DNA of 19,010 bases from Chitinivibrionales bacterium (GTDB taxonomy: Bacteria; Fibrobacterota; Chitinivibrionia; Chitinivibrionales; WJKA01): positions 1-19,010 of the forward strand of contig JBBRUX010000061.1 in assembly GCA_038247415.1 (NCBI GenBank), in the 5' to 3' direction. Below the pieces are notes generated by a model. That model made no database searches. It saw nothing but the letters and a program-made list of their open reading frames with translations, and was not told where the DNA came from. A program made the translations under genes and the position numbers. Numbering within the stretch: position 1 is the stretch's first letter; every line of letters begins with the position of its first letter. Of the stretch, positions 905-19,010 are shown one piece after another.

Positions 905-1978
905 ATGATTATGCATTCTAATCGACTGCATTTATATGCCTTTGTTATAGTGTTGTGTCAAGTTGTCTATTGGCCGGTCAACGCTGGTGTTGTCAATCCC
1001 GATATATCAGCAATCGGCCAAGTGTATGGGACCTACACAAATGATTCACTTACTGAAACGCACGATAAATTTGCACTCTCACTCGGTGAGACCGAGATAA
1101 ATCTGGATGCCGCCCTAAATCCTTATTTCAAAGGTGCATTCGTGCTGGCGATTGAAGGTGATGGTGGTATCGAAGTAGAAGAGGCATATGCATCCATGGT
1201 GCGTGGCCTACCTCTTAATCTTGCATTGAAAGCGGGAAAGTATCGGCTGAATTTCGGCAAGCTCAACCAGGTTCATCCTCATGCGTATCCATTTCTGCGG
1301 ACACCACGGGTATTGGCTCCGGATGTGGCAAAACTGCTTCCAGGTGAGGAAAGTTTTAATGATATTGCCGTTGAAGCTTCAACACTCATTCCCGTTTTCG
1401 GAAGTTGGGCAATCACTCCATCGGCAGATTTTCTTGAAGGCCGTTCATACCATCCCGAAGAATCCGCAATCGCCCACGCATGGCTTGCCCATGTGTCAAA
1501 TACATTCAGCATAGATCCAGCTGCGTTTGACATTGGTGGCTCGTTCACTCAGGGCATTAACAATGTAGCTGCCAATACCAAAACCACGGTTCTTGGGTTT
1601 GATGCAAAAGCGAAGATGATCGGTTCGCCTGTCTACGCAATGACTTTTGGCAGTGAATACCTCTATAAGTTTGCCGAAATTGCAGAAATCGCAGGAGGGA
1701 TAAGCCATGCTGACCGTTATGGCTTTTATGCATATATCAACAACCAATTATTTACGCGCTACAATGTCGGGATACTTTATGAACAGTACCAGAATCCTGA
1801 TGACAATTCGGTAATTGATAGGTCGATCAAGCCGTTCGTAGGATTCGCAGTTCTGGAGGAAAGCACACTTCTGCGTGCGTCATATGAATATTTCCTTGCA
1901 GGCAATGCTCAGAAAACAAGCACTATTGAAGTTCAGTTGCTCTTCAGCATGGGACCACACAAAGCTCATCAATTCTAA
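905..1978 (+). CDS. Outer-membrane beta-barrel (porin-like) protein of the type found with Zn/Mn ABC transporters
   Basis: Signal peptide; NPDIS, E-x-E-x-x-L-x-A-x-L-N-P-Y-F, EEAY, GKLNQVHPH motifs; His-rich C-terminus ending in Phe (GPHKAHQF); SD AAGGAG 898-903. Confidence 0.75.
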   Translation: MIMHSNRLHLYAFVIVLCQVVYWPVNAGVVNPDISAIGQVYGTYTNDSLTETHDKFALSLGETEINLDAALNPYFKGAFVLAIEGDGGIEVEEAYASMVRGLPLNLALKAGKYRLNFGKLNQVHPHAYPFLRTPRVLAPDVAKLLPGEESFNDIAVEASTLIPVFGSWAITPSADFLEGRSYHPEESAIAHAWLAHVSNTFSIDPAAFDIGGSFTQGINNVAANTKTTVLGFDAKAKMIGSPVYAMTFGSEYLYKFAEIAEIAGGISHADRYGFYAYINNQLFTRYNVGILYEQYQNPDDNSVIDRSIKPFVGFAVLEESTLLRASYEYFLAGNAQKTSTIEVQLLFSMGPHKAHQF

Positions 1979-2004
1979 CCACGATTACAAAAGGATATTA
2001 AATC

Positions 2005-2904
2005 ATGAAATCAATATTCAGAAGCAGCCTAACTGCTGCAATAGTGTTTCTGCTCACCGGTTCCACAATGTCCAACGCTGCGGTGCGTATCGTTGCGGCA
2101 TTGCCGGATCTCGGTTCCATAGCATCATACATCGGGGCCGATAACGTCGAGGTCACATCAATCGCAAAGGCAAACTCTAACCCGCACACGGTTGAAGTGT
2201 TTCCCTCGTACATGGCCAAAGTATCTCAGGCTGCAATTTATTTGAAGTCCGGATTGGGACTCGATCAATGGTCGGACGCTATTATCGATGGATCACGCAA
2301 TAATAAGATTCGAATTATAGACTGTTCAAACGGTGTCGCGGTTCTTGAAAAACCAGTAAAAGTCGACGCATCAATGGGTGATGTGCATCCTTTCGGCAAT
2401 CCGCATTACTGGCTTGATCCACGCAATGGTATTATCATTGGTCAAAACATTCTAGAAGCCTTGAAATCAGTTGACGCTGTGAATGCCTCTTTGTACGAAA
2501 GTAATTACGCCAAATTTAAAACAGAATGCGAAAGCAAGTTTTCTGCATGGCAAACGGAGATGACGCCGCTTGAGGGAAGAAAAATCATATCGTATCACTC
2601 ATCGTGGGCCTATTTCGCCAATGCATTTCAGCTCTCAATAATTGAACATATAGAACCATTTCCAGGCATTCCTCCAACAGGCAATCATCTTGCGCGACTT
2701 GTCAATTTAATCAAAAAGGAAAATGTAGCTTTTATTCTTCAGGAGCCATATTTCCCTGATGACGCACCAAAATTCTTAAATCGTCAGACCAGCATTAAGG
2801 CTTTCAAATATGCCCCTTCATGTTCAGATGCAAATGCACCGTCATACCTGAATCATTTTGATGAGATAATCAGTTCATTATCAACAGTTGCAGGAGATAA
2901 ATAG
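2005..2904 (+). CDS. Metal ABC transporter substrate-binding protein (ZnuA/TroA/MntC family)
   Basis: Signal peptide; NPH, GDVHPFGNPHYWLDP, YHSSWAYF and EPFPGIPPT motifs. Confidence 0.93.
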   Translation: MKSIFRSSLTAAIVFLLTGSTMSNAAVRIVAALPDLGSIASYIGADNVEVTSIAKANSNPHTVEVFPSYMAKVSQAAIYLKSGLGLDQWSDAIIDGSRNNKIRIIDCSNGVAVLEKPVKVDASMGDVHPFGNPHYWLDPRNGIIIGQNILEALKSVDAVNASLYESNYAKFKTECESKFSAWQTEMTPLEGRKIISYHSSWAYFANAFQLSIIEHIEPFPGIPPTGNHLARLVNLIKKENVAFILQEPYFPDDAPKFLNRQTSIKAFKYAPSCSDANAPSYLNHFDEIISSLSTVAGDK

Positions 2905-2905
2905 T

Positions 2906-3736
2906 ATGATGCTTTTTCACTATTCCTTCATGCTTCCCGCTTTAGTGGTCTGCCTGATCCTGGCGGGAATTCATACCTATTTCGGCTATCATATTGTTCA
3001 GCGGGGGGTCATCTTTGTTGACCTCTCGCTATCTCAGATAGCCGCGCTTGGTGCATGCGTCGCGCTTCTCCTGGGATGGGGAGAGGATGCGCCAATAAAA
3101 GCTTTTACCATGAGTTTAGCATTTACCTTTGGCGGTGCGGTTCTTTTTGCCTTTTTACGCAGGAGCCAGAAGATCGTTCCAATGGAGGCGCTCATTGGTA
3201 TTGCCTATGCCGGTGCTGTCGCAGTATCATTACTATTGCTGGAAAAATCCGCCACCGGAACCGAGCATATCAAGGAGATGCTCGTCGGAACGATACTTAC
3301 CGTTTCGTGGCACGATGTGCTGCAACTCGGGGCGATTGTGCTGGTAGTCGCGATCGTGCATTTGATAGTCCACAAGCGCCTGTTTTTGATATCGGAGAAT
3401 CCGGTTGGCGCAGCAAAAAACAACATTAAACTATGGATATGGGACATCATTTTTTACGCGACCTTTGGGATCGTTGTCACTTCGTCGGTTAAAGTCGCGG
3501 GTGTTCTGCTGATATTTTCTCTTTTGACAATTCCAGCAGTCACGGCAATGATCTGCATTGCGAGAACTCTTCGGCGGGTAGTATTCGGCTGGGTATTTGG
3601 GTTAGTTGGATGTATTGCAGGGCTTGAGGTTTCTTTGCGGTTTGACTCGGCTGCGGGACCATCAATAATAACGACCATGCTGGCAATAATGCTGATAGGA
3701 ATTGGGATCAGTGTTGTAACACGAAAGATGAGGTAA
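2906..3736 (+). CDS. Metal ABC transporter permease (ZnuB/MntB, ABC-3 family)
   Basis: Polytopic membrane protein with RGVIFVDLSLSQIAALG, EALIG and GVLLIFSLLTIPA; ATG 2906 has SD AGGAG 2892-2896. Confidence 0.92.
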   Translation: MMLFHYSFMLPALVVCLILAGIHTYFGYHIVQRGVIFVDLSLSQIAALGACVALLLGWGEDAPIKAFTMSLAFTFGGAVLFAFLRRSQKIVPMEALIGIAYAGAVAVSLLLLEKSATGTEHIKEMLVGTILTVSWHDVLQLGAIVLVVAIVHLIVHKRLFLISENPVGAAKNNIKLWIWDIIFYATFGIVVTSSVKVAGVLLIFSLLTIPAVTAMICIARTLRRVVFGWVFGLVGCIAGLEVSLRFDSAAGPSIITTMLAIMLIGIGISVVTRKMR

Positions 3737-7662: not shown

Positions 7663-8142
7663 CTATTTGACTTTAAAGAATCGTCCTGTCGCCTGAACAA
7701 CAAGGTTTCGGTTTTGAACGATCTCACATTTCATCGAATACAAGAGGCCACAATTAACCGCTGTAATCGACGTTGTGAGTGTTGTCTTTGTCTGTATCAT
7801 AACCGGCTTGCGGTACTTGACCGACAGATTCGCCGTATATCCGACCACTCCGTGCCCCATCAAGCATTGGGCCATCGATGCATCAATAATCGCGGCGACA
7901 ACGCCTCCGTGAACCATTTCATCGTAGCCCTGCTGGAATTCATTACCGTTGAATTCGCCCTGCAAAGTGCCTGCATCATCAAACGCGAATTTCAGTCCCG
8001 GAACAATCGATGGTTGGCGATTAAACAAGCACTGCGAATGGTGTATTTCTCTGAGACGTTTGAGATTTCCTTCGTAATAAGCACTGTCGTGAGACTGTGT
8101 GTCTATGTCAATGTCCTGCGTATTGCTCTCGTCAACACTCAC
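7663..8142 (-). CDS. PaaI family thioesterase (hotdog fold)
   Basis: QGYDEMVHGGVVAAIIDASM and TANLSVKYRKPV motifs; start uncertain (GTG 8142 preferred to TTG 8184). Confidence 0.85.
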   Translation of the reverse strand: MSVDESNTQDIDIDTQSHDSAYYEGNLKRLREIHHSQCLFNRQPSIVPGLKFAFDDAGTLQGEFNGNEFQQGYDEMVHGGVVAAIIDASMAQCLMGHGVVGYTANLSVKYRKPVMIQTKTTLTTSITAVNCGLLYSMKCEIVQNRNLVVQATGRFFKVK

Positions 8143-8171: not shown

Positions 8172-8510
8172 TCAATGGTCGCAACTGTTTCCTCCGGTAA
8201 TAAGAGTGCCCTTAAGCCAATCAAGAATCACGGTCTGCGGATGCTCTGGTGGCGCACCTACCACCACCTGGATGTTGTTCTGAGCAAAGAGCTGTTGCGC
8301 TCGCATACCCATACCGCCAGCTATAATAACGTTAGCGCCTTTTTCGTGCAGCCATTTTGGCAACAGCCCCGGCTCATGAGGCGGTGGAACTACCTCTTCT
8401 TTAGCGGTGATTGATTTTGTTTGTTCGTCAACGGTTGCGATGACGAATTTTTCACAATGACCGAAATGCATGCAGAGTTTACCATCTGCGGTTGGAACGG
8501 CAATTTTCAT
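8172..8510 (-). CDS. NifB/NifX (MTH1175-like) FeMo-cofactor-binding family protein, HFGHC/CDH type
   Basis: MKIAVP..HFGHCEKF, PHEPGLLPKWL, IAGGMG, C-terminal NSCDH. Confidence 0.9.
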   Translation of the reverse strand: MKIAVPTADGKLCMHFGHCEKFVIATVDEQTKSITAKEEVVPPPHEPGLLPKWLHEKGANVIIAGGMGMRAQQLFAQNNIQVVVGAPPEHPQTVILDWLKGTLITGGNSCDH

Positions 8511-8563
8511 ATGACCCCCATGGTTTGATTGTTGTTGATGTGTTCGATTCGAACAGGTCCAGT

Positions 8564-8923
8564 TTACCAATGTCCTTCGACATCAGACGACTCAAGTTTT
8601 GCAAGCTTTCCATTCTTGAATAAATCGACAGCATCCTGCACGGTTACGTTTGACGCGGTGCAAACAGCGACTCCCGCCTTATTGAGAGCTGTAAACGCCT
8701 TGGGGCCGCAATGTCCGCTAATAAGAACCTCACAACCGGCATTGACCACATTGGCGGCAGATTGAATACCTGCGCCTTGTGCAGCGTTCAGGTTCTGGTT
8801 ATTGTCGATAGATTCCCAGCTCATAGTTACATCGTCGTAAATCATGAAATATTTTGCTCTGCCAAACCGCGGGTCTATCGCGCTATCCGATTTTGGTTGT
8901 TCTGATGATATTGCAATTTTCAT
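8564..8923 (-). CDS. NifB/NifX family protein, orange protein (ORP)-like
   Basis: MKIAIS, DPRFGRAKYF, QGAGIQSA, GHCGPKAF; SD AGGAGA. Confidence 0.9.
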   Translation of the reverse strand: MKIAISSEQPKSDSAIDPRFGRAKYFMIYDDVTMSWESIDNNQNLNAAQGAGIQSAANVVNAGCEVLISGHCGPKAFTALNKAGVAVCTASNVTVQDAVDLFKNGKLAKLESSDVEGHW

Positions 8924-11881: not shown

Positions 11882-12538
11882 ATGATGTTGTGTACCAGAA
11901 GTGGAACACAACACCATTCATTATTCGATGACAAAGCCAAAGCCTGGGACACGCAACCAGATCGGGCGCACCGATCGCAGGTCATAGCTGAAGCAATCAG
12001 CAACGCAATTCCTCACGTTCCGTCCCTTACCGCGATGGAGTACGGTTGCGGCACTGGCCTGTTGAGTTTTCCGATTAAAGACCGATTCTCAAAAATCACA
12101 CTGATTGATAATTCACAGGGCATGCTTGACGTTTTGGCAGAGAAGGTCAAGAACGAAAATGTGACGAATATGGATGTTTTTAACATTGACTTATTGGAAT
12201 CTTCCGCTGGCATATCAAGCAAGTTTTCGGTGATTTACAACTCGATGGTGTTGCATCACATTGCCGATATAAAGAAGATTATGTCGATATGGTATTCGCT
12301 ATTGACTGCTCCGGGATATCTTTGCGTTGCCGATCTTGATTCCGATAACGGGTTATTTCATGGCAAAGGTTTTAGTGGACATAACGGATTTGATAGGGCC
12401 GACCTTCAAAAGCTCGCAATCGAAACAGGCTTCGAAAAGATCAAATTCGATACCGTATACGTAATAAAAAAAGCAGGCAATGACGGTGTAGAACGATCGT
12501 TCCCGCTTTTCTTGATGGTGGCACAGAAGTCAGGATGA
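11882..12538 (+). CDS. Class I SAM-dependent methyltransferase
   Basis: FDDKAKAWD, MEYGCGTG, IDNSQGML, SMVLHHI, ADLD, HNGF; start codon uncertain. Confidence 0.88.
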   Translation: MMLCTRSGTQHHSLFDDKAKAWDTQPDRAHRSQVIAEAISNAIPHVPSLTAMEYGCGTGLLSFPIKDRFSKITLIDNSQGMLDVLAEKVKNENVTNMDVFNIDLLESSAGISSKFSVIYNSMVLHHIADIKKIMSIWYSLLTAPGYLCVADLDSDNGLFHGKGFSGHNGFDRADLQKLAIETGFEKIKFDTVYVIKKAGNDGVERSFPLFLMVAQKSG

Positions 12539-12575: not shown

Positions 12576-13298
12576 TCAATGCGGGTTCTTTCCCATTGAC
12601 TTCACTGATGTATCTCCCATCAGAAACGCTTCCGCTTCCCTGCAATCCCGACATTCGCAAAGCCCCTGTTCGCAAAGAACCAGAAACCGGGCACACGTCC
12701 GTGATGCGAATTCGACATCATGCGTGGCAATTAAAATTGAGGATGGAATAGAACGCAGGACATTCGCAAGCGCATTTTTCCCCCGAGGATCCAGCGCCGA
12801 CGATGGTTCATCGAGTAGAATCACTGCAGGACTGGTAACAAGCGCACCGGCCAGTGCAATTCGCTGACGTTGACCATGAGACAGTTGGAATGGGGAGCAT
12901 TCTGCCAGGCCTTTTGCCCCTAACATATCGAGTGTGGCAATGGATTTTTCGTGCGCTTCTTGCAGAGGTACACCTTTTCGAATAAGACCATAAGCTACAT
13001 CGTCAAGAACACGGGGAAAGAGAATTTGATCTTCGGGAATATTGAACAGAAATCCAGTGCGGTCACGCGCTTTCTGCAAGGTCTTTTTTTCAACAGGAAT
13101 TTCATCAATAAAAATGTTGCCGGTAAACGGCACTAATCCGACTGCCGCAAGCAGCAAGGTCGTTTTTCCCGATCCGTTAAGACCGAATAGCGCGACTCTT
13201 TCGTCGGGATGAACATGGAATGACACGTCGCTGACCGTGTCGACCACGCTTCCGGCATACCGGATAGTCACGGATTTGAATTGAAGTACAGGGTTCAT
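12576..13298 (-). CDS. ECF transporter ATPase (CbiO/NikO/EcfA)
   Basis: Walker A GLNGSGKT, LSHGQRQR signature, LLDEPSSALD, ATHD. Confidence 0.92.
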   Translation of the reverse strand: MNPVLQFKSVTIRYAGSVVDTVSDVSFHVHPDERVALFGLNGSGKTTLLLAAVGLVPFTGNIFIDEIPVEKKTLQKARDRTGFLFNIPEDQILFPRVLDDVAYGLIRKGVPLQEAHEKSIATLDMLGAKGLAECSPFQLSHGQRQRIALAGALVTSPAVILLDEPSSALDPRGKNALANVLRSIPSSILIATHDVEFASRTCARFLVLCEQGLCECRDCREAEAFLMGDTSVKSMGKNPH

Positions 13299-14044
13299 AA
13301 AAATGCTTTCACTCGCAATGTAACTGAAATCACGAAGGCTAAAGTTGCAGCAGACAGCATCGTCATATCTTGAAATGTCAATTTGATACGATCATCCTTA
13401 ACTGCAGTCTCGATTCCATATCCTCGAACCGCCATTGCCGCAGCGCTTCGCTCTGCACGAAACAGCATCCGAACCATCCAGACGATTGGGAATGCAAAAA
13501 GCACACTGCTACCGCGAACCCCCGATGCACCCCGCAATCGTAGTACACCAACAATTCGTGTCGTTTCTTCCGCTAAGAGCATTGTTTGATTAATAAGCTG
13601 AACGATCAGCGCGACAATTGATCGGGGAATCGGCAGACAAACAAGCCCGCGATGAAGATCATGCATGGTAAGGGATGCTATCGTTGACGCAGCAATAAAG
13701 AACATACAGGTGCTGCGCAAGGCGATACCACTTGACAAAGCAAAACGCTCTGCCATCGGTGATGAGGAATACTCATCGACCGTCATCCAGGGGCTGAGAA
13801 GAAGAAACGGACAAAACAAAACGATCGATGCAATCGCGCCGCGTAGGAGCATTTTTTCCGGCATTGACGCAAGCAGTATCCAGCAAAAGGCAGTACTGAT
13901 CATGAAGATCATTTGTCCCATCGATTGCAGAGGCATCAGCAAACAAGAACTGCCCACAAGTACACCCGCTAAAATGCGAGTTTGCGGGTGCACCGATTTT
14001 AAAGGCCCGTTTCCGCATCCCCAGAAGGCAAAGATATCTTTCAT
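13295..14044 (-). CDS. ECF transporter T component (CbiQ/NikQ/EcfT)
   Basis: HPQTRI start, TM helices, coupling motifs LRG and AMAVRGY. Confidence 0.85.
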   Translation of the reverse strand: MKDIFAFWGCGNGPLKSVHPQTRILAGVLVGSSCLLMPLQSMGQMIFMISTAFCWILLASMPEKMLLRGAIASIVLFCPFLLLSPWMTVDEYSSSPMAERFALSSGIALRSTCMFFIAASTIASLTMHDLHRGLVCLPIPRSIVALIVQLINQTMLLAEETTRIVGVLRLRGASGVRGSSVLFAFPIVWMVRMLFRAERSAAAMAVRGYGIETAVKDDRIKLTFQDMTMLSAATLAFVISVTLRVKAFL

Positions 14045-14046
14045 GA

Positions 14047-14661
14047 TCAACCCTTACGCACAGTTACTAAATATCCACCATCATCATCACGCATTTCTTC
14101 TATGACGTATCCCATTTGCTCAAGCAGCGATGCAGTCTGATCTGCGGGGGCCAGAAGATGATCGTTCACCGCTGCCGATGCTTCGGAATGAATCTTGTTT
14201 ACGGCATTGCGGGAAATCGTGTGCCATATATGAAGCTTGCCTCCCGGCTTGAGCCATTTCAGGAATAAGGTCCCAACCAGCTTAGCATCTGTCAAATGAG
14301 GCCAGACAGAATAACAGATAATCCGGTCAAATGTTTTAGGGGGAGATTCCATATCTTCCACGACACCACACAACCAAGTAACTCGTGCATCGTTTGCTTT
14401 TAATCGTGCCCTATCGAGCATGACATTCGACAGATCGATTGCGGTCACTTTTCCTTTGGGTGACAAGTGGCGAATGAGCGCCGCAGTGAGATTGCCAGTG
14501 CCGCAACCTACATCAAGAATGTGTTCATCGCCTTGAACACCGAATTTCTCCAGTGCTGAATCGAGCTGAATACCGAGTCCTTTCAGGTCGTGAAAAGAAT
14601 CCCATTTAAGAGCCAATGAGTCAAAAAAAGTATTGGATGTTGATTGACAACTTTCACACAT
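14047..14661 (-). CDS. Class I SAM-dependent methyltransferase embedded in the ECF operon
   Basis: FFDSLALKWD, ILDVGCGTG, FDRIICYSVWPH, LKPGG; ATG 14661 with SD AGGAG. Confidence 0.9.
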   Translation of the reverse strand: MCESCQSTSNTFFDSLALKWDSFHDLKGLGIQLDSALEKFGVQGDEHILDVGCGTGNLTAALIRHLSPKGKVTAIDLSNVMLDRARLKANDARVTWLCGVVEDMESPPKTFDRIICYSVWPHLTDAKLVGTLFLKWLKPGGKLHIWHTISRNAVNKIHSEASAAVNDHLLAPADQTASLLEQMGYVIEEMRDDDGGYLVTVRKG

Positions 14662-15187
14662 TTTTATACTCCTGAATTGAATTTTTAATTCCTGCCACAC
14701 CAGAAAGCTTCACAATTGCGGGAATAGCCACGATCATTAGAATGATACCAGGCCAACCGCTAAGTAGTGATGCAGCGGCAACGAATTTGGCAGGTAGTTT
14801 CATAAAAAGCGCCATCAGATACACAAGCCCAACGCCGATGGCCCGGCCAAGTAGCAGAACTGGAATAAGAATGAGCAGTTCATTTGCTTTTGGAAAGATT
14901 CTTCGCAACAGACCAATCATTGCACACATTATCGACAACTCAATGCTCATGATGAACGCAACTGGCGGATAAAATGGCGGCATACCGGTTATTGCACCAG
15001 AGATAAGGGGCAGCAGCAGTGCAGTGAGTGCCGAAGGGATCGGGCCGACAAAAAAAGCGAGTGTCACAATCGGCAGATACATCGGCATGAATATAGAGCC
15101 GAGATGAAAAACATGAAAGATAACCGGCAGCAGCATTGCCGCAGCGCCGAAAACTGCACAGTACGCGATATCACGAGGTTTGAGCAT
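14654..15187 (-). CDS. ECF transporter S component (not NikM/CbiM type)
   Basis: 177-aa, about 6 TM protein with LPVIFH, FMPMYLP, GMPP and PGIIL motifs; sits with T and A genes. Confidence 0.82.
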   Translation of the reverse strand: MLKPRDIAYCAVFGAAAMLLPVIFHVFHLGSIFMPMYLPIVTLAFFVGPIPSALTALLLPLISGAITGMPPFYPPVAFIMSIELSIMCAMIGLLRRIFPKANELLILIPVLLLGRAIGVGLVYLMALFMKLPAKFVAAASLLSGWPGIILMIVAIPAIVKLSGVAGIKNSIQEYKNV

Positions 15188-15189
15188 GG

Positions 15190-17235
15190 TTACACCTTTA
15201 TGGTTATTCCTGCGAGAAAATTTATGCCGGGCATCGGGTAGTATTGGATATACTGATATTGTGAATTCATTAAATTCCGAACAACACAATATGGTTCAAG
15301 TTGCACTCCGCCTTTTCCGTGTGTACGATATCTTATAGACCCATCAATAAAAAAAACATTCTCAAGTGGATCACGTTTGTAGTTATTCATATATAATCCA
15401 TGAACCCATTCACCGGTTGCCGATAATTCCAATTTACCTGTTTTGCTTTCGCATGTGTAGCTGATCCGACCATTGACCTTGGCATCGGGGTTCTGTTTTG
15501 TAAATTTACCGACATCCTGCCAACTTGCAGTAATAAACGCTCCGAATGGCCCGATATGCTCCATCGAAAACTCACCTTCAATGCCTTGGATTTCAAGTTG
15601 GTCAATGTTCACAACTTCGGCACTTGGCCAGACGCCGAAATACTTGATCATATCGGTTGCCCAGGTTTTGTATACTGAGCCACTCAACCGGGCAGTTCCT
15701 GATTTTACCTCTGCGCCAGCATCCCAATTGATAGCGATTTCCGGGCGAAGGTTCGGATTTGCAACGGGAAATGGTAGATAGAGTTCACGAAGGGTGGGTT
15801 GCCTGAAATTCTTTGTCAACCGAGTATGCAGGGAAAAATATTCTATGGGATCCCAATTCAGACCTGCTTTGTACAGGGGAATGGTTCCATATCTGTTGCT
15901 GAAATGAAGTCGCCCCCCACAAACGCCGGTGAATGCCATGCCTGGCTTTATGGTGATTTGCCCATATAAACCAGCGTTTGAAAGGTCTTCAACAGGTGAT
16001 TCGATACCAGTAATTCTGTTAAGTACAAGTCCGTCAACATATTCGCCTGCTGTACCCAGAATGATTTGCAGTTTCTGCTCGATAAAACTGCCTGAACACT
16101 CCGCAGTCGCTCCCGTGGTGTAATCACGCGAAAAGAAGCCGTCATATAGCCGATGCTCGCCGATATTGAGCCATGGCACAACGGTTAAATGCAGGTGACT
16201 GCCTGGATAGTCAAGCCTCGCGCTAAAGCTGTTCCGAAGCACGTCAAACCGATGATCGGTGTAGGGGTGAAAATATGGCCCAGGATCTCCACCTTCGAGG
16301 TGAATAATCTTATCACGAAGCGCAATGGTACTTTGTCCAGGCAGATGCAGACGCAACCCTATTTGTCCGGCTACACTGCTTCCATCGGTACCATCACGAT
16401 GGCCATCGGTTGCAAACGCGGAGAAAGCGGAAACGACTTCTGTATTTTTGCCCTTGGAAAGTAATGTGGCGCGTTCACGAAAGGTGTTAAACGATCCGTA
16501 CGCGGCATCGTTCTCAAGTCGAATTCCAGCCGAATCAGGCCAACGGTTTTCGACAATAATAACTCCGCCCATAGCATTGGTGCCATACAACACCCCATCG
16601 CCGCCTTTGACCACAATCATTCGGTCAATTAACGATGGGAAAAAAGCATCGGGAATCGGATGTCCGAAAATGCCTTGATAATCGGGAGCGCCATCTTCCA
16701 CAACAAGTATTTGCGAATTGGGACTGCCGCCTAATCCACGGATGTAAATGCCGCCCGATGCGCCCGAAGATACGCCATGCAACCCGGTGCCTTTGCTTGT
16801 CACATAGATATCGCCCGATTCCTGGGAGATCTCCTCAAGCGGTGTCGCTCTTGAAGACTCGCGAATTTGCCAACCTCGTACAATTGTTGGTTTGACGGAT
16901 TCATCCTTGCCTGTATACCGTTTCCCAAAAACCGTAAACGTGTAGAGTTCGGGAATATCTGCAGTATCATTCGCAGAAAGCGCGATTGAATCGTGAATCG
17001 GTTTATTTGTATCGATGACTGGTGCTGATTTTGCTTGGAGTAAAAGGGTGGAATCTTTTACCCATACGGTATCATCAATCCAGATTGTATCGACTCGTTC
17101 GATAGTGTTTGGAGGCACGCTATCGAGGCTGGGCATTGTCATGGATGTGGTACCAGCTTGGACACCGGACATCAACAATAAAAACCATACAACCATAATC
17201 AGAAATGGTTTTGCCAGGTGCTTTTCAATGCCCAT
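15190..17235 (-). CDS. TonB-dependent receptor
   Basis: Signal peptide; plug motifs IRGLGG, DG.P, VVKGGDGVLYGTNAMGGVI; barrel motifs FRQPTLRELY, NPNLRPE, RNL, PGINF. Confidence 0.95.
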   Translation of the reverse strand: MGIEKHLAKPFLIMVVWFLLLMSGVQAGTTSMTMPSLDSVPPNTIERVDTIWIDDTVWVKDSTLLLQAKSAPVIDTNKPIHDSIALSANDTADIPELYTFTVFGKRYTGKDESVKPTIVRGWQIRESSRATPLEEISQESGDIYVTSKGTGLHGVSSGASGGIYIRGLGGSPNSQILVVEDGAPDYQGIFGHPIPDAFFPSLIDRMIVVKGGDGVLYGTNAMGGVIIVENRWPDSAGIRLENDAAYGSFNTFRERATLLSKGKNTEVVSAFSAFATDGHRDGTDGSSVAGQIGLRLHLPGQSTIALRDKIIHLEGGDPGPYFHPYTDHRFDVLRNSFSARLDYPGSHLHLTVVPWLNIGEHRLYDGFFSRDYTTGATAECSGSFIEQKLQIILGTAGEYVDGLVLNRITGIESPVEDLSNAGLYGQITIKPGMAFTGVCGGRLHFSNRYGTIPLYKAGLNWDPIEYFSLHTRLTKNFRQPTLRELYLPFPVANPNLRPEIAINWDAGAEVKSGTARLSGSVYKTWATDMIKYFGVWPSAEVVNIDQLEIQGIEGEFSMEHIGPFGAFITASWQDVGKFTKQNPDAKVNGRISYTCESKTGKLELSATGEWVHGLYMNNYKRDPLENVFFIDGSIRYRTHGKGGVQLEPYCVVRNLMNSQYQYIQYYPMPGINFLAGITIKV

Positions 17236-17695
17236 ATGGCCCCGGCACCGAGAAATCCTGTTCCATGTCTTCCGCTGTCAATTCGATCACTTGAAAATTC
17301 CCGTATGTCGCATCTGTCGATTTTACCGTTTTATAGTTGAACCATAATGGCGTTGTACTGATGATATCTGTATCATTTGACATCCATGTTGAATCGCACA
17401 TGCAAAGGCTGTCAATCAAGCCATATTCAACCTGGCTACGGCAATACTTATGCGCATCGAATTTTTGAAAATGAACGGTTCCATCTCCTCGCAAACAGCG
17501 ATCAGGCGTGGTCGCTTCACCATAGCGTAGTACGGTGTTCCAGACCACGCCGTTGAATGAAGGATTGCGAACCAGCACTTCCGGCGCAATTTTATTGATG
17601 ATGACGACTTCGGGTTCCACCATTTGGCATGAACAAAAAAGCACGCCCGCCAAGACCGCAATCCCGGCGAGCGTTTTGAGTATTGATCTTTTCAT
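17225..17695 (-). CDS. Lipoprotein of unknown function
   Basis: MKRS..LAGVLFCSC lipobox-like signal; 4 Cys in the mature part; C-terminal His. Confidence 0.8.
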   Translation of the reverse strand: MKRSILKTLAGIAVLAGVLFCSCQMVEPEVVIINKIAPEVLVRNPSFNGVVWNTVLRYGEATTPDRCLRGDGTVHFQKFDAHKYCRSQVEYGLIDSLCMCDSTWMSNDTDIISTTPLWFNYKTVKSTDATYGNFQVIELTAEDMEQDFSVPGPYGH

Positions 17696-17703
17696 AAATC
17701 TGA

Positions 17704-18219
17704 TTACTGGCATTGAGGATTCTGCACTCGATCAGTATAAGGTTTAAACCCATATTCCGGCCAGAGCTGAAGAATGCGGTTATAGACCGCTTCGGGAATG
17801 GGCTCCACACCTTCGGGTGGGCACGGACCTTGATGATTCGGTGCGTTGAGAACTATGGTTCGTGTCTGGCCGTCAACAACCTCCTCCTCGACCTTGCTGG
17901 CTATCGGCAGACAATTCTGAGTGCTGCACGCCGTGTCTGCCCAACACGCTACCATAAGCACGTAATCGAGGCCTGGCTCTACCTCTTTGGCAGCACTTGA
18001 ATCCCCAAGGAGAATTTTTCCAAACTCTACCCCGAGATAGCTACATTTAGCTATAGTCCACGGTGGTTTGCGATCCATTGATGCATTGTTGAAATCATTC
18101 TTGATTCGCACCGTTGCTGTTTGTTTTTCCTGTGGGTCAGTGGTGTTGCAGGACATAACAGTCGCACCCGAAACAAAAAGTGCTGAGATGAGGAAATTTT
18201 TGTATTTTGATAAACGCAT
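17704..18219 (-). CDS. Lipoprotein of unknown function, Cys-rich
   Basis: MRLSKYK..ATVMSC lipobox-like signal; 6 further Cys; SD AAGGA. Confidence 0.8.
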   Translation of the reverse strand: MRLSKYKNFLISALFVSGATVMSCNTTDPQEKQTATVRIKNDFNNASMDRKPPWTIAKCSYLGVEFGKILLGDSSAAKEVEPGLDYVLMVACWADTACSTQNCLPIASKVEEEVVDGQTRTIVLNAPNHQGPCPPEGVEPIPEAVYNRILQLWPEYGFKPYTDRVQNPQCQ

Positions 18220-18263
18220 ACCGCTTCCTTTCTTGAAGAGTTGTTTTTTAAACCGACACCATG

Positions 18264-18321
18264 GTGGCACTAAAATAAATATTGTAACACTTTTATGCTA
18301 TCCTTTTTAATATAGTAGCAC
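18264..18321. promoter_or_regulatory. Two tandem NikR operator-like sites overlapping an extended -10 promoter
   Basis: GTGGCA-N15-TAACAC (18264-18290) and ATGCTA-N15-TAGCAC (18295-18321); minus-strand TGtTACAAT at 18289-18281; adjacent to nikR. Confidence 0.72.
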
Positions 18322-18383
18322 GAAATGGCCATTTCAGCCTAATGACTAAGCGGTAATATCAGGTGCAAGAGGGGAAAAAAATG

Positions 18384-18788
18384 TTAATCAATTGCGGAAA
18401 TACTTAGTTCCACCTGTTTAACACCAACCTGAGATTTGAGAGAATTGGCCAGTTTTTCTACATCACGAGCCTTGCCTTTAACAGCGAGAATTTCGAGGCA
18501 GTGATGGTGGTCGAGATGAACATGTTGAGTAGAGATAACCAGCGACTGGAAATCATGCTGGATGTCAAGCAATGTATTGACGAGTTCACGCTTATGATGG
18601 TCATAGGTCATGGTTATCGCTCCGGCCACCGTACCGCCCTCTGCAATAACCTTTTGGGAGAGCTCTTTCCGTATCAAATCACGGATGGCTTCTGACCTGT
18701 TGCGATAATTTTGTTTTTCTATATGACGGTCAAACGCATCGATCAATTGTTTTTCAAGTGAAATGCCGAAACGATAGAGATCATTCAT
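18384..18788 (-). CDS. nikR: Nickel-responsive transcriptional regulator NikR
   Basis: RHH domain RFGISL..NRSEAIRDLIR; Ni site YDHH, HVHLDHHHCLE. Confidence 0.97.
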   Translation of the reverse strand: MNDLYRFGISLEKQLIDAFDRHIEKQNYRNRSEAIRDLIRKELSQKVIAEGGTVAGAITMTYDHHKRELVNTLLDIQHDFQSLVISTQHVHLDHHHCLEILAVKGKARDVEKLANSLKSQVGVKQVELSISAID

Positions 18789-19010
18789 GATAATCCTGCC
18801 TGTTGTTGTTTCTGTAAATTAATCAGCCACAATACTCTGAATAACACGGATAGTCCGACGCATAAAATCGGCGCATCCGGGTTTTTCATGGGTATACCCC
18901 ATATATTGTGTTCACACTGTTCTATAACGTAAACAAGGCTTTGCAGGAGGATATGGGTACAAATCCAATCCGCCACAGTGAAAAAATATTGCCGTTCTGT
19001 AATGAGCCCT

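Follow-up and report, generated by a model that had tools for sequence, protein, structure and literature searches.

A NikR-linked operon of lipoproteins, a TonB-dependent receptor, an ECF transporter and a methyltransferase, proposed as a route for nickel uptake

The operon and its proteins

The window analysed here, a stretch of 19,010 nucleotides (nt), is a complete contig (C61) of a 3.84-Mb draft genome, 96% complete, from a bacterium of the Fibrobacterota. According to its open reading frames (ORFs), the minus strand holds eight genes from 18788 to 12576: nikR and, behind it, an operon of seven genes. These encode two predicted lipoproteins (Lipo1 and Lipo2), a TonB-dependent outer-membrane receptor, an S component, a methyltransferase dependent on S-adenosylmethionine (SAM), and the T component (EcfT) and ATPase (EcfA) of an energy-coupling factor (ECF) transporter. 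From their coordinates, the seven genes overlap one another by 4–11 nt or are separated by 2-nt gaps. An earlier note on this DNA had described seven tightly coupled genes and an S component starting with MLKPRD, and the sequence bears out both. The composition of the operon, from lipoproteins and receptor to ECF transporter and methyltransferase, is supported by the following features (aa, amino acids).

18384..18788, minus strand: nikR, nickel-responsive repressor, 134 aa (NCBIfam NF003381, 148.9 bits, cut-off 105; Pfam NikR_C, PF08753, 102.7 bits, and RHH_1, PF01402)
18264..18290, no strand assigned: NikR-type operator, GTGTTAC-N13-GTGCCAC on the coding strand, 2 mismatches to the consensus
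18281..18310, minus strand: sigma-70-like promoter candidate, TTAAAA-18-TACAAT with TG before the -10 (9/12 matches in a consensus scan)
17704..18219, minus strand: Lipo1, predicted lipoprotein with no family in Pfam or NCBIfam; invariant C24 and H-x-G-P-C-P-P
17225..17713, minus strand: Lipo2, predicted lipoprotein with no family in Pfam or NCBIfam; invariant C-terminal G-P-Y-G-H
15190..17235, minus strand: TonB-dependent outer-membrane receptor, 681 aa (Pfam Plug and TonB_dep_Rec_b-barrel)
14654..15187, minus strand: ECF S component of an unnamed family, 177 aa, starting MLKPRD (sub-threshold ECF_trnsprt; S fold in the model)
14047..14661, minus strand: class I SAM-dependent methyltransferase, 204 aa (Pfam Methyltransf_25/11/12/31)
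13295..14050, minus strand: EcfT (Pfam CbiQ, 28.1 bits, cut-off 25; Arg-Gly coupling motifs LRLRGAS and AVRGYG)
12576..13298, minus strand: EcfA, the sole ABC ATPase gene of the module (Pfam ABC_tran, 86.1 bits; Walker A GLNGSGKT, signature LSHGQ, Walker B ILLDEP)

Two Arg-containing coupling motifs, such as those of the EcfT listed above, are the mark of CbiQ/EcfT T components. The best NCBIfam matches of EcfA are ECF_ATPase_2, cbiO and ECF_ATPase_1, at about 142 bits, each under its cut-off. In the receptor, a Plug domain (PF07715, 49.8 bits) is followed by the barrel (PF00593, 96.2 bits), both over the cut-off; the NCBIfam subfamily models all stay under theirs, and there are no sequence relatives in the PDB at E ≤ 0.001.

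The S component belongs to no named family. It scores 17.1 bits against Pfam ECF_trnsprt, under the cut-off of 30.7, has no match in NCBIfam, and has none to PF01891 (CbiM) at E ≤ 0.01, a profile to which the real CbiM of the same genome scores 213.4 bits. NikM and CbiM coordinate the ion through an N-terminal Met-His. The S protein has no His at position 2, and its N-terminus varies in length and sequence among 20 aligned members. In addition, none of the eight operon proteins matches the CbiM/NikM or CbiN/NikN families of Pfam and NCBIfam. The earlier statement that the hallmarks of NikM and CbiM (the Met-His and a NikN/CbiN-type partner) are absent stands.

The AlphaFold model of the S component (pLDDT 87) was compared with known structures by VIA-align, giving Z values of 16.1 for RibU, 15.5 for 4hzu_S, 13.9 for both ThiT and PanT, 13.6 for FolT and 12.8 for BioY, followed by 10.9 for NikM2 (4m5c), 10.4 for BtuM (8ovv), 8.9 for CbiM (5x3x_M) and 7.5 for CbrT. 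The top 14 rows are all S components or S-like transporters (Z 10.2–16.1), and the vitamin-type group of RibU, HmpT, ThiT, PanT, FolT and BioY reaches Z 11.7–16.1 over 148–167 aligned residues; such Z values are common among helical bundles, and the rank of the fold does not determine the substrate, which tempers what the model can say for an organic cargo. Foldseek returned no match to the model at E ≤ 0.001, and the family profile found no PDB chain at E ≤ 10. By Z value, the modelled six-helix fold appears closer to the vitamin-type S components than to NikM/CbiM, and helix 1 has a stretch of small residues (Ala/Gly).

The S family is highly conserved, with a mean column identity of 65% across phyla. 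Its invariant motifs include F-H-x4-G-x2-F-M-P-M-Y-L-P, G-M-P-P-F-x-P-P, an S-G-W-P-G stretch, E83 and R115; H25, M34, M36, M69, M80 and E83 are invariant, with C10 and H28 nearly so. Judging from the helix boundaries of the model and the positive-inside rule, most of the invariant residues would lie in the outer half of their helix, the region in which an S component binds its substrate.

Among 1320 candidates, 461 are relatives of the S component at E ≤ 0.001; where the listed ones have a name it is 'hypothetical protein', except for one row with the label ECF transporter S component. A library-wide search with the S profile gave 32 representatives at E ≤ 1e-30, 381 at ≤ 1e-10 and 1142 at ≤ 0.001. 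Residues P21, F24, H25, G30, P35, M36, P39, M69, P70, P75, E83, G147 and P156 are invariant among the S component of the window and 14 distant relatives. Because the distant relatives share these residues and 0/28 of them reach any NCBIfam cut-off, the family is, by its sequence, part of a larger uncharacterised S superfamily. Proteins of this wider superfamily (P0299–P0422, about 170–190 aa) share the F-H...G..F-x-P-M..P and G-M-P-P motifs and E83. One member, at 2865-3410 of the minus strand of locus L100 (genome G094), is a solitary S gene beside genes for a DUF362 protein and a polysaccharide deacetylase; this, the one neighbourhood inspected, gives no hint of a function.

The start of the methyltransferase is taken as the ATG at 14661, the ORF itself opening at a GTG at 14700. 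The protein matches Methyltransf_25 (73.8 bits) and Methyltransf_11 (65.6 bits), and Methyltransf_12 and Methyltransf_31 are also over their cut-offs. Among 20 sequences, the glycine-rich LDVGCGTG, the SAM motif G-C-G-T-G-N (G52, C53, G54, T55, G56, N57) and D76, the acidic residue after strand 2 of the Rossmann-type domain, are invariant, as are C116, W120, P121, H122, W146, H147, N155 and H158. Database labels for this protein are generic or automatic (UbiE-like, 'class I SAM-dependent'). A second class I methyltransferase gene lies on the plus strand at 11882-12538, convergent with EcfA, and in locus L011 of the Lentisphaerae a homologue of it (E 4e-32) immediately follows EcfA in the same orientation.

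Lipo1 and Lipo2 are probably lipoproteins, because each has a hydrophobic N-terminus and then a cysteine conserved without exception in 20 orthologues (C24 in Lipo1, C29 in Lipo2). Also invariant in these alignments are H129, G131, P132, C133, P134 and P135 of Lipo1, and D153, G158, P159, Y160, G161 and H162 of Lipo2. The model of Lipo1 (pLDDT 89.5) is a beta-sandwich with two C-terminal helices; its structure search gave a best Z of 6.2, within the noise, to generic beta-sandwiches, and Foldseek gave no match at E ≤ 0.001. An Atlas search with Lipo2 yielded unnamed clusters only.

Conservation and spread of the module

Relatives were sought in about 185,000 species genomes, one genome per species, of which 137 encode an S relative under a dozen or more phylum-level labels. 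The best 80 loci of these carrier genomes were kept, and every one comes from a metagenome bin of an uncultured Gram-negative phylum. Their labels include Fibrobacterota, Ignavibacteriota, Bacteroidota, Myxococcota, Verrucomicrobiota and Kiritimatiellia, and further Lentisphaerae, Planctomycetota, Acidobacteriota, Aminicenantes, Bdellovibrionota and Gemmatimonadales. Since the S family is patchy within its own phylum, being found in 10/296 genomes and in 0/6 other genomes of the same taxonomic family, this distribution suggests lateral spread.

A core of S component, methyltransferase, EcfT and EcfA recurs across the 80 loci. EcfT follows in 69 of the 71 loci with room downstream, EcfA in 68 and the methyltransferase in 67; of the four without a methyltransferase match, L019 has a weaker match and L035 a copy 5.7 kb off. 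Upstream content was counted in the 61 loci whose upstream sequence runs to 3.6 kb or more. A receptor gene on the same strand is found in 51 of them. In 29 of these 51 it is orthologous to that of the window, and the remaining 22 carry a different receptor and no lipoproteins. Both lipoproteins occur in 29 loci, and wherever both are listed the orthologous receptor is present too. The synteny survey suggested in the earlier note thus recovers the four-gene core, the upstream receptor and, as described below, a frequently adjacent nikR.

The S component and the methyltransferase are physically coupled in some lineages. In six of the 80 loci, a single ORF matches both, and a search among longer proteins found 34 clusters of such fusions, 329–415 aa long, whose alignment shows a full-length S component, a short linker and a full-length methyltransferase in colinear order. 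A complex prediction for the two separate proteins gave a score of 0.00, which is uninformative either way. Because the C-terminus of the S component is cytoplasmic, the methyltransferase would sit at the inner face of the transporter.

No NikN/CbiN or NikK/NikL partner recurs among the 80 loci. The commonest extra neighbours are ZnuA/ABC-3 metal transporters, a porin-like protein, FeoB and regulators, and none of them recurs strongly. The window itself has, at 905-3736 of the plus strand, a gene for a 357-aa protein that weakly resembles LbtU-type siderophore porins (22.3 bits, sub-threshold). Next come genes for a binding protein of the ZnuA type and a permease of the ABC-3 type, with no evident ATPase gene. 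Genes of these kinds are found close to the nickel module elsewhere too: ZnuA, ABC-3 and a related unknown protein (E 1e-11) in eight other loci each. Between 4080 and 10407 lies an anaerobe-type block. It has single genes for a metallo-beta-lactamase-fold (MBL) protein, a thioesterase and an Mrp/NUBPL ATPase, two each for MinD/CbiA-type ATPases that carry 4Fe-4S domains and for DUF5320 proteins, and three for dinitrogenase FeMo-cofactor-binding-like proteins. Similar MinD-Fer4, NUBPL and MBL genes adjoin the module in a few other loci.

Nickel regulation

The NikR of the window is the single NikR_C match of its genome and has an H-x-H-x5-C motif (HVHLDHHHC). This motif resembles the high-affinity nickel site of E. 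coli NikR. For delta-proteobacteria, the NikR consensus GTGTTAC-[N13/14]-GTAACAC has been derived, as given in the available part of PMC545781, and the box of the window, whose host belongs to the Fibrobacterota, was scored against this delta-proteobacterial consensus. The operator at 18264-18290 is the only match in the window at three mismatches or fewer. Its place is the 164-nt gap that separates nikR from Lipo1, 45 nt ahead of the Lipo1 ATG.

By itself, this operator is not significantly above chance, and the relevant counts weigh against giving it much credit alone: shuffling the window produced at least one box (≤3 mismatches) in 68/200 shuffles, and the whole genome has 22 boxes (≤2 mismatches) where simple arithmetic expects about 25. 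L006, a close orthologous locus, has no box at ≤3 mismatches. The operator gains weight because of its place in the spacer between nikR and Lipo1 and because of the boxes in orthologous loci. When boxes with a spacer of 13 or 14 and at most two mismatches were counted in the 80 loci, 19 were found, in 19/80 loci, within promoter windows of 250 nt upstream of the cluster genes (57,850 nt in all), where about 0.4 would be expected by the same kind of arithmetic; five of them have no mismatch, seven have one and seven have two. Outside the promoter windows, just six boxes occur across 1.17 Mb. Three of those six, with no mismatch, can be attributed by elimination to L043, L051 and L078, where they stand near the operon heads, at offsets of -2969, -3028 and -1784 from the start of the S gene. 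We infer that ORF starts at these three loci were likely called too far upstream, leaving the boxes outside the promoter windows.

In 23 of the 61 loci with sufficient upstream sequence, a nikR gene lies within 5 kb, frequently on the same strand and in first position. With the adjacent nikR genes and the consensus boxes at many orthologous operon heads, control of the module by NikR, as claimed in the earlier note, is supported, and nickel-controlled uptake by the module is, at the level of sequence, well supported. The mode of control would be repression by Ni-NikR. The -10 of the promoter candidate falls inside the first half-site of the operator, a pattern match only, from a sigma-70 scan that gave 15 sites in the region where 11.2 are expected. 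The earlier note had spoken of NikR-like boxes in the plural, and of these one holds, that at 18264-18290. An imperfect palindrome, GTGCTAC-N13-ATAGCAT, at 18295-18321, 4 nt upstream of the NikR box, has four mismatches to the consensus; it could be a weak second NikR site or a product of chance, and we do not count it as a box.

Regulation by NikR would also fit a nickel-sparing role, in which the operon, derepressed in nickel shortage, imports a nickel-free organic compound that is methylated on entry and replaces the product of a nickel-dependent pathway. A vitamin-type S fold with a coupled enzyme suits the salvage of an organic molecule, and NikR regulons do include genes other than those for uptake, for example a predicted Fe-only hydrogenase of D. 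desulfuricans (available part of PMC545781). However, nikR heads the same operon in many of the loci, and metabolic genes do not recur in the neighbourhood, where metal transporters (ZnuA/ABC-3, FeoB) recur instead. A nikR gene in the first position of an operon is typical of dedicated metal-uptake systems. We find a nickel-sparing role improbable.

The uptake of a corrinoid, of cobalt or of another tetrapyrrole, including F430-like compounds, with the methyltransferase modifying a side chain of the macrocycle, is a further alternative. The regulator is NikR, with no B12 element, which answers the choice between NikR and a B12 riboswitch raised in the earlier note; riboswitches are absent from the window and from 6/7 other loci scanned. 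The exception is L020, with two cobalamin riboswitches in tandem on the minus strand (7778-7949 and 8472-8657; 79.7 and 115.7 bits), 1.3–2.2 kb upstream of a receptor-less module of S component, methyltransferase, EcfT and EcfA. Their presence near a module speaks for such a cargo, but the pair points away from it. Other support comes from the sub-threshold NCBIfam matches of the receptor, which include models of haem and B12 receptors; from the S-type folds of the cobalamin carriers BtuM and CbrT (Z 10.4 and 7.5); and from a weak match of the methyltransferase to BchM, a class I metalloporphyrin enzyme (41.8 bits, cut-off 158.9). These family matches are, however, all far under their cut-offs, and tetrapyrrole genes are not recurrent nearby. 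Tetrapyrrole or cobalt uptake thus appears highly improbable, and the earlier speculation about an F430-like or other tetrapyrrole cargo found no supporting evidence.

Cargo, mechanism and comparison with known systems

What would the host need nickel for? Its genome yielded no large subunit of a [NiFe] hydrogenase and no urease. It encodes one Prismane-family protein of 552 aa, the nickel-insertion protein LarC (390.6 bits) and a weak LarA-like match. Because LarC and a LarA-like gene are encoded, a nickel requirement through the nickel-pincer cofactor is plausible. The genome also has a canonical CbiM-CbiN-CbiQ-CbiO set. It lies on contig C1 (C1:125773-133853; L085 3773-11853, minus strand), where a five-gene ABC transporter of the Opp-type peptide/nickel family is followed by CbiM, CbiN, CbiQ and CbiO on the same strand, with no riboswitch and no nearby NikR box at the CbiMNQO locus. 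A CbiM homologue is present in 3/5 other carrier genomes, and with our genome in 4/6 of those checked. In L006 (Raymondbacteria), about 3.5 kb separates the module from a downstream 365-aa ORF of the CbiM/NikM family. With the two ORFs after it, of 257 and 252 aa, this ORF takes up 16246-18919 of the plus strand, an arrangement like Nik(MN)QO, with a family match for the first ORF only.

We propose that the module is a NikR-repressed uptake route for nickel across both membranes, most likely carrying an organic nickel complex, a reading to which we give an even chance. When nickel is sufficient, Ni-NikR bound to the operator that overlaps the -10 would shut the operon, and in nickel shortage it would be transcribed. 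The two small disulfide-rich lipoproteins would assist the TonB-dependent receptor in moving the substrate through the outer membrane. In the periplasm, the substrate would be captured by the six-helix vitamin-type S component of the new family, with EcfT and a dimer of EcfA driving its import. At the inner face, the methyltransferase, nearly always encoded between S and T, would methylate the incoming ligand, and methylation may trap the ligand or lower its affinity, leading to release of the nickel. An organic complex is favoured over the bare ion by the combination, in one module, of a nearly obligatory methyltransferase with a TonB receptor and an S component of the vitamin type. It is tempting to go further and propose that the S component and the SAM methyltransferase act as one unit, which methylates a donor group of the imported nickel chelate at the cytoplasmic face, strips it of its metal and so makes uptake irreversible. 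This more specific import-and-methylate scheme we offer only tentatively, as possible rather than expected.

An alternative explanation is that the module imports the free ion. The S component would bind Ni2+ (or Ni2+/Co2+) through His, Met, Glu and Cys residues, the receptor would pass the ion in the manner proposed for FrpB4-type receptors, and the methyltransferase would be an accessory for regulation or metal hand-off. Control by NikR agrees with this, as does the predicted placement of H25, M34, M36, M69, M80, E83, C10 and H28 of the S component in the outer halves of the helices. C116, H122, H147 and H158 of the methyltransferase could themselves bind metal, and NikR-regulated nickel receptors are already known (PMC11247825, available part). 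On the other hand, the invariant SAM motif, the presence of the methyltransferase in 67/71 loci and its repeated fusion to S are hard to square with a bare ion. The core His, Met and Glu residues are also found in distant relatives outside this type of operon, as in the solitary S gene by DUF362, and may not be specific for nickel. Moreover, an ion importer of the CbiM/NikM type is already present in 4/6 genomes checked. A free-ion importer is, in our judgement, rather unlikely.

Several observations weigh against an organic nickel complex as the cargo, or against the role proposed for the methyltransferase. H25, M36, M69 and E83 could form an ion site and bind Ni2+ directly. L013 and L079 are entirely without the methyltransferase, which is itself near no characterised subfamily by NCBIfam cut-offs, PDB sequences or database names. 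Neither metallophore synthesis genes nor genes for nickel enzymes are among the recurrent neighbours in the 80 loci. Finally, the co-existing CbiMNQO may serve for cobalt, which would remove the argument from co-existence. The earlier claim of a nickel complex, not the free ion, thus remains plausible: the nearly universal and sometimes fused methyltransferase and the co-existence of CbiM/NikM speak for it, and the conserved His, Met and Glu residues, which could bind an ion, keep it from being firmer.

Little is understood of how bacteria acquire nickel where free Ni2+ is scarce, as in settings that are anoxic, sulfidic or rich in organic matter, and the module offers a small, defined set of proteins with a clear nickel regulator. 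It raises the questions of the form in which nickel is imported, the role of a methyltransferase coupled to an ECF transporter and the ligands of the two lipoproteins, and the natural fusions of S and methyltransferase are ready objects for biochemistry and structure. If true, the import-and-methylate scheme would be a new principle by which metal is freed from metallophores, and the module would be the first ECF importer to include an enzyme. The scheme would also mean that many uncultured anaerobes scavenge complexed nickel, conceivably from the nickel tetrapyrroles of methanogen debris.

One of the nearest known arrangements is in Caldithrix abyssi, for which loci with a predicted NikR-linked TonB receptor and nikMNQO have been described (PMC5317091). 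In the available part of that report, they resemble the module in having a TonB-dependent receptor, an ECF-type importer, nikR and NikR-like motifs upstream. They differ in their canonical Nik/Cbi M and N components and in having, as far as described there, no methyltransferase and no pair of Lipo1 and Lipo2; the second locus of that organism, Cabys_2622-2627, may or may not be the same module. Receptors for nickel under NikR control are represented by FrpB4 and FecA3 (PMC11247825, available part). The group I importers NikMNQO, NikKMLQO and CbiMNQO likewise have a dedicated S component, a T component, a single A gene, one operon and a nickel purpose, and the NikR-regulated nik(MN)QO operons of delta-proteobacteria share the GTGTTAC-N13/14-GTAACAC operator (available part of PMC545781). 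In contrast to these Nik/Cbi systems, the S component here is outside the CbiM/NikM family and lacks the Met-His, there is no NikN, NikK or NikL, and a methyltransferase is integral to the module or fused.

With the vitamin-type S components RibU, ThiT, FolT, BioY, PanT and HmpT, the new family shares the six-helix fold and the Ala/Gly stretch in helix 1. Unlike them, it shows no membership at the sequence level, and it comes with its own T and A components, regulation by a metal sensor and a coupled enzyme. BtuM is an S-component-like cobalamin transporter that works alone and alters its substrate chemically through its own cysteine. It is similar in being an S-type membrane protein, in handling a metal complex and in tying chemistry to transport, and the S component here has a conserved C10 and conserved His residues; the differences are that the enzyme would be a SAM methyltransferase, separate or fused, and that the module includes T and A. 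We know of no natural nickelophore route that uses an ECF transporter. Neither this S family nor a methyltransferase coupled to an ECF transporter turned up in a literature search, which did not cover the possibly relevant paper of Rodionov et al. 2006 (J Bacteriol). Judged by sequence, what is new with respect to known nickel importers is the S family, the lipoprotein pair and the built-in methyltransferase.

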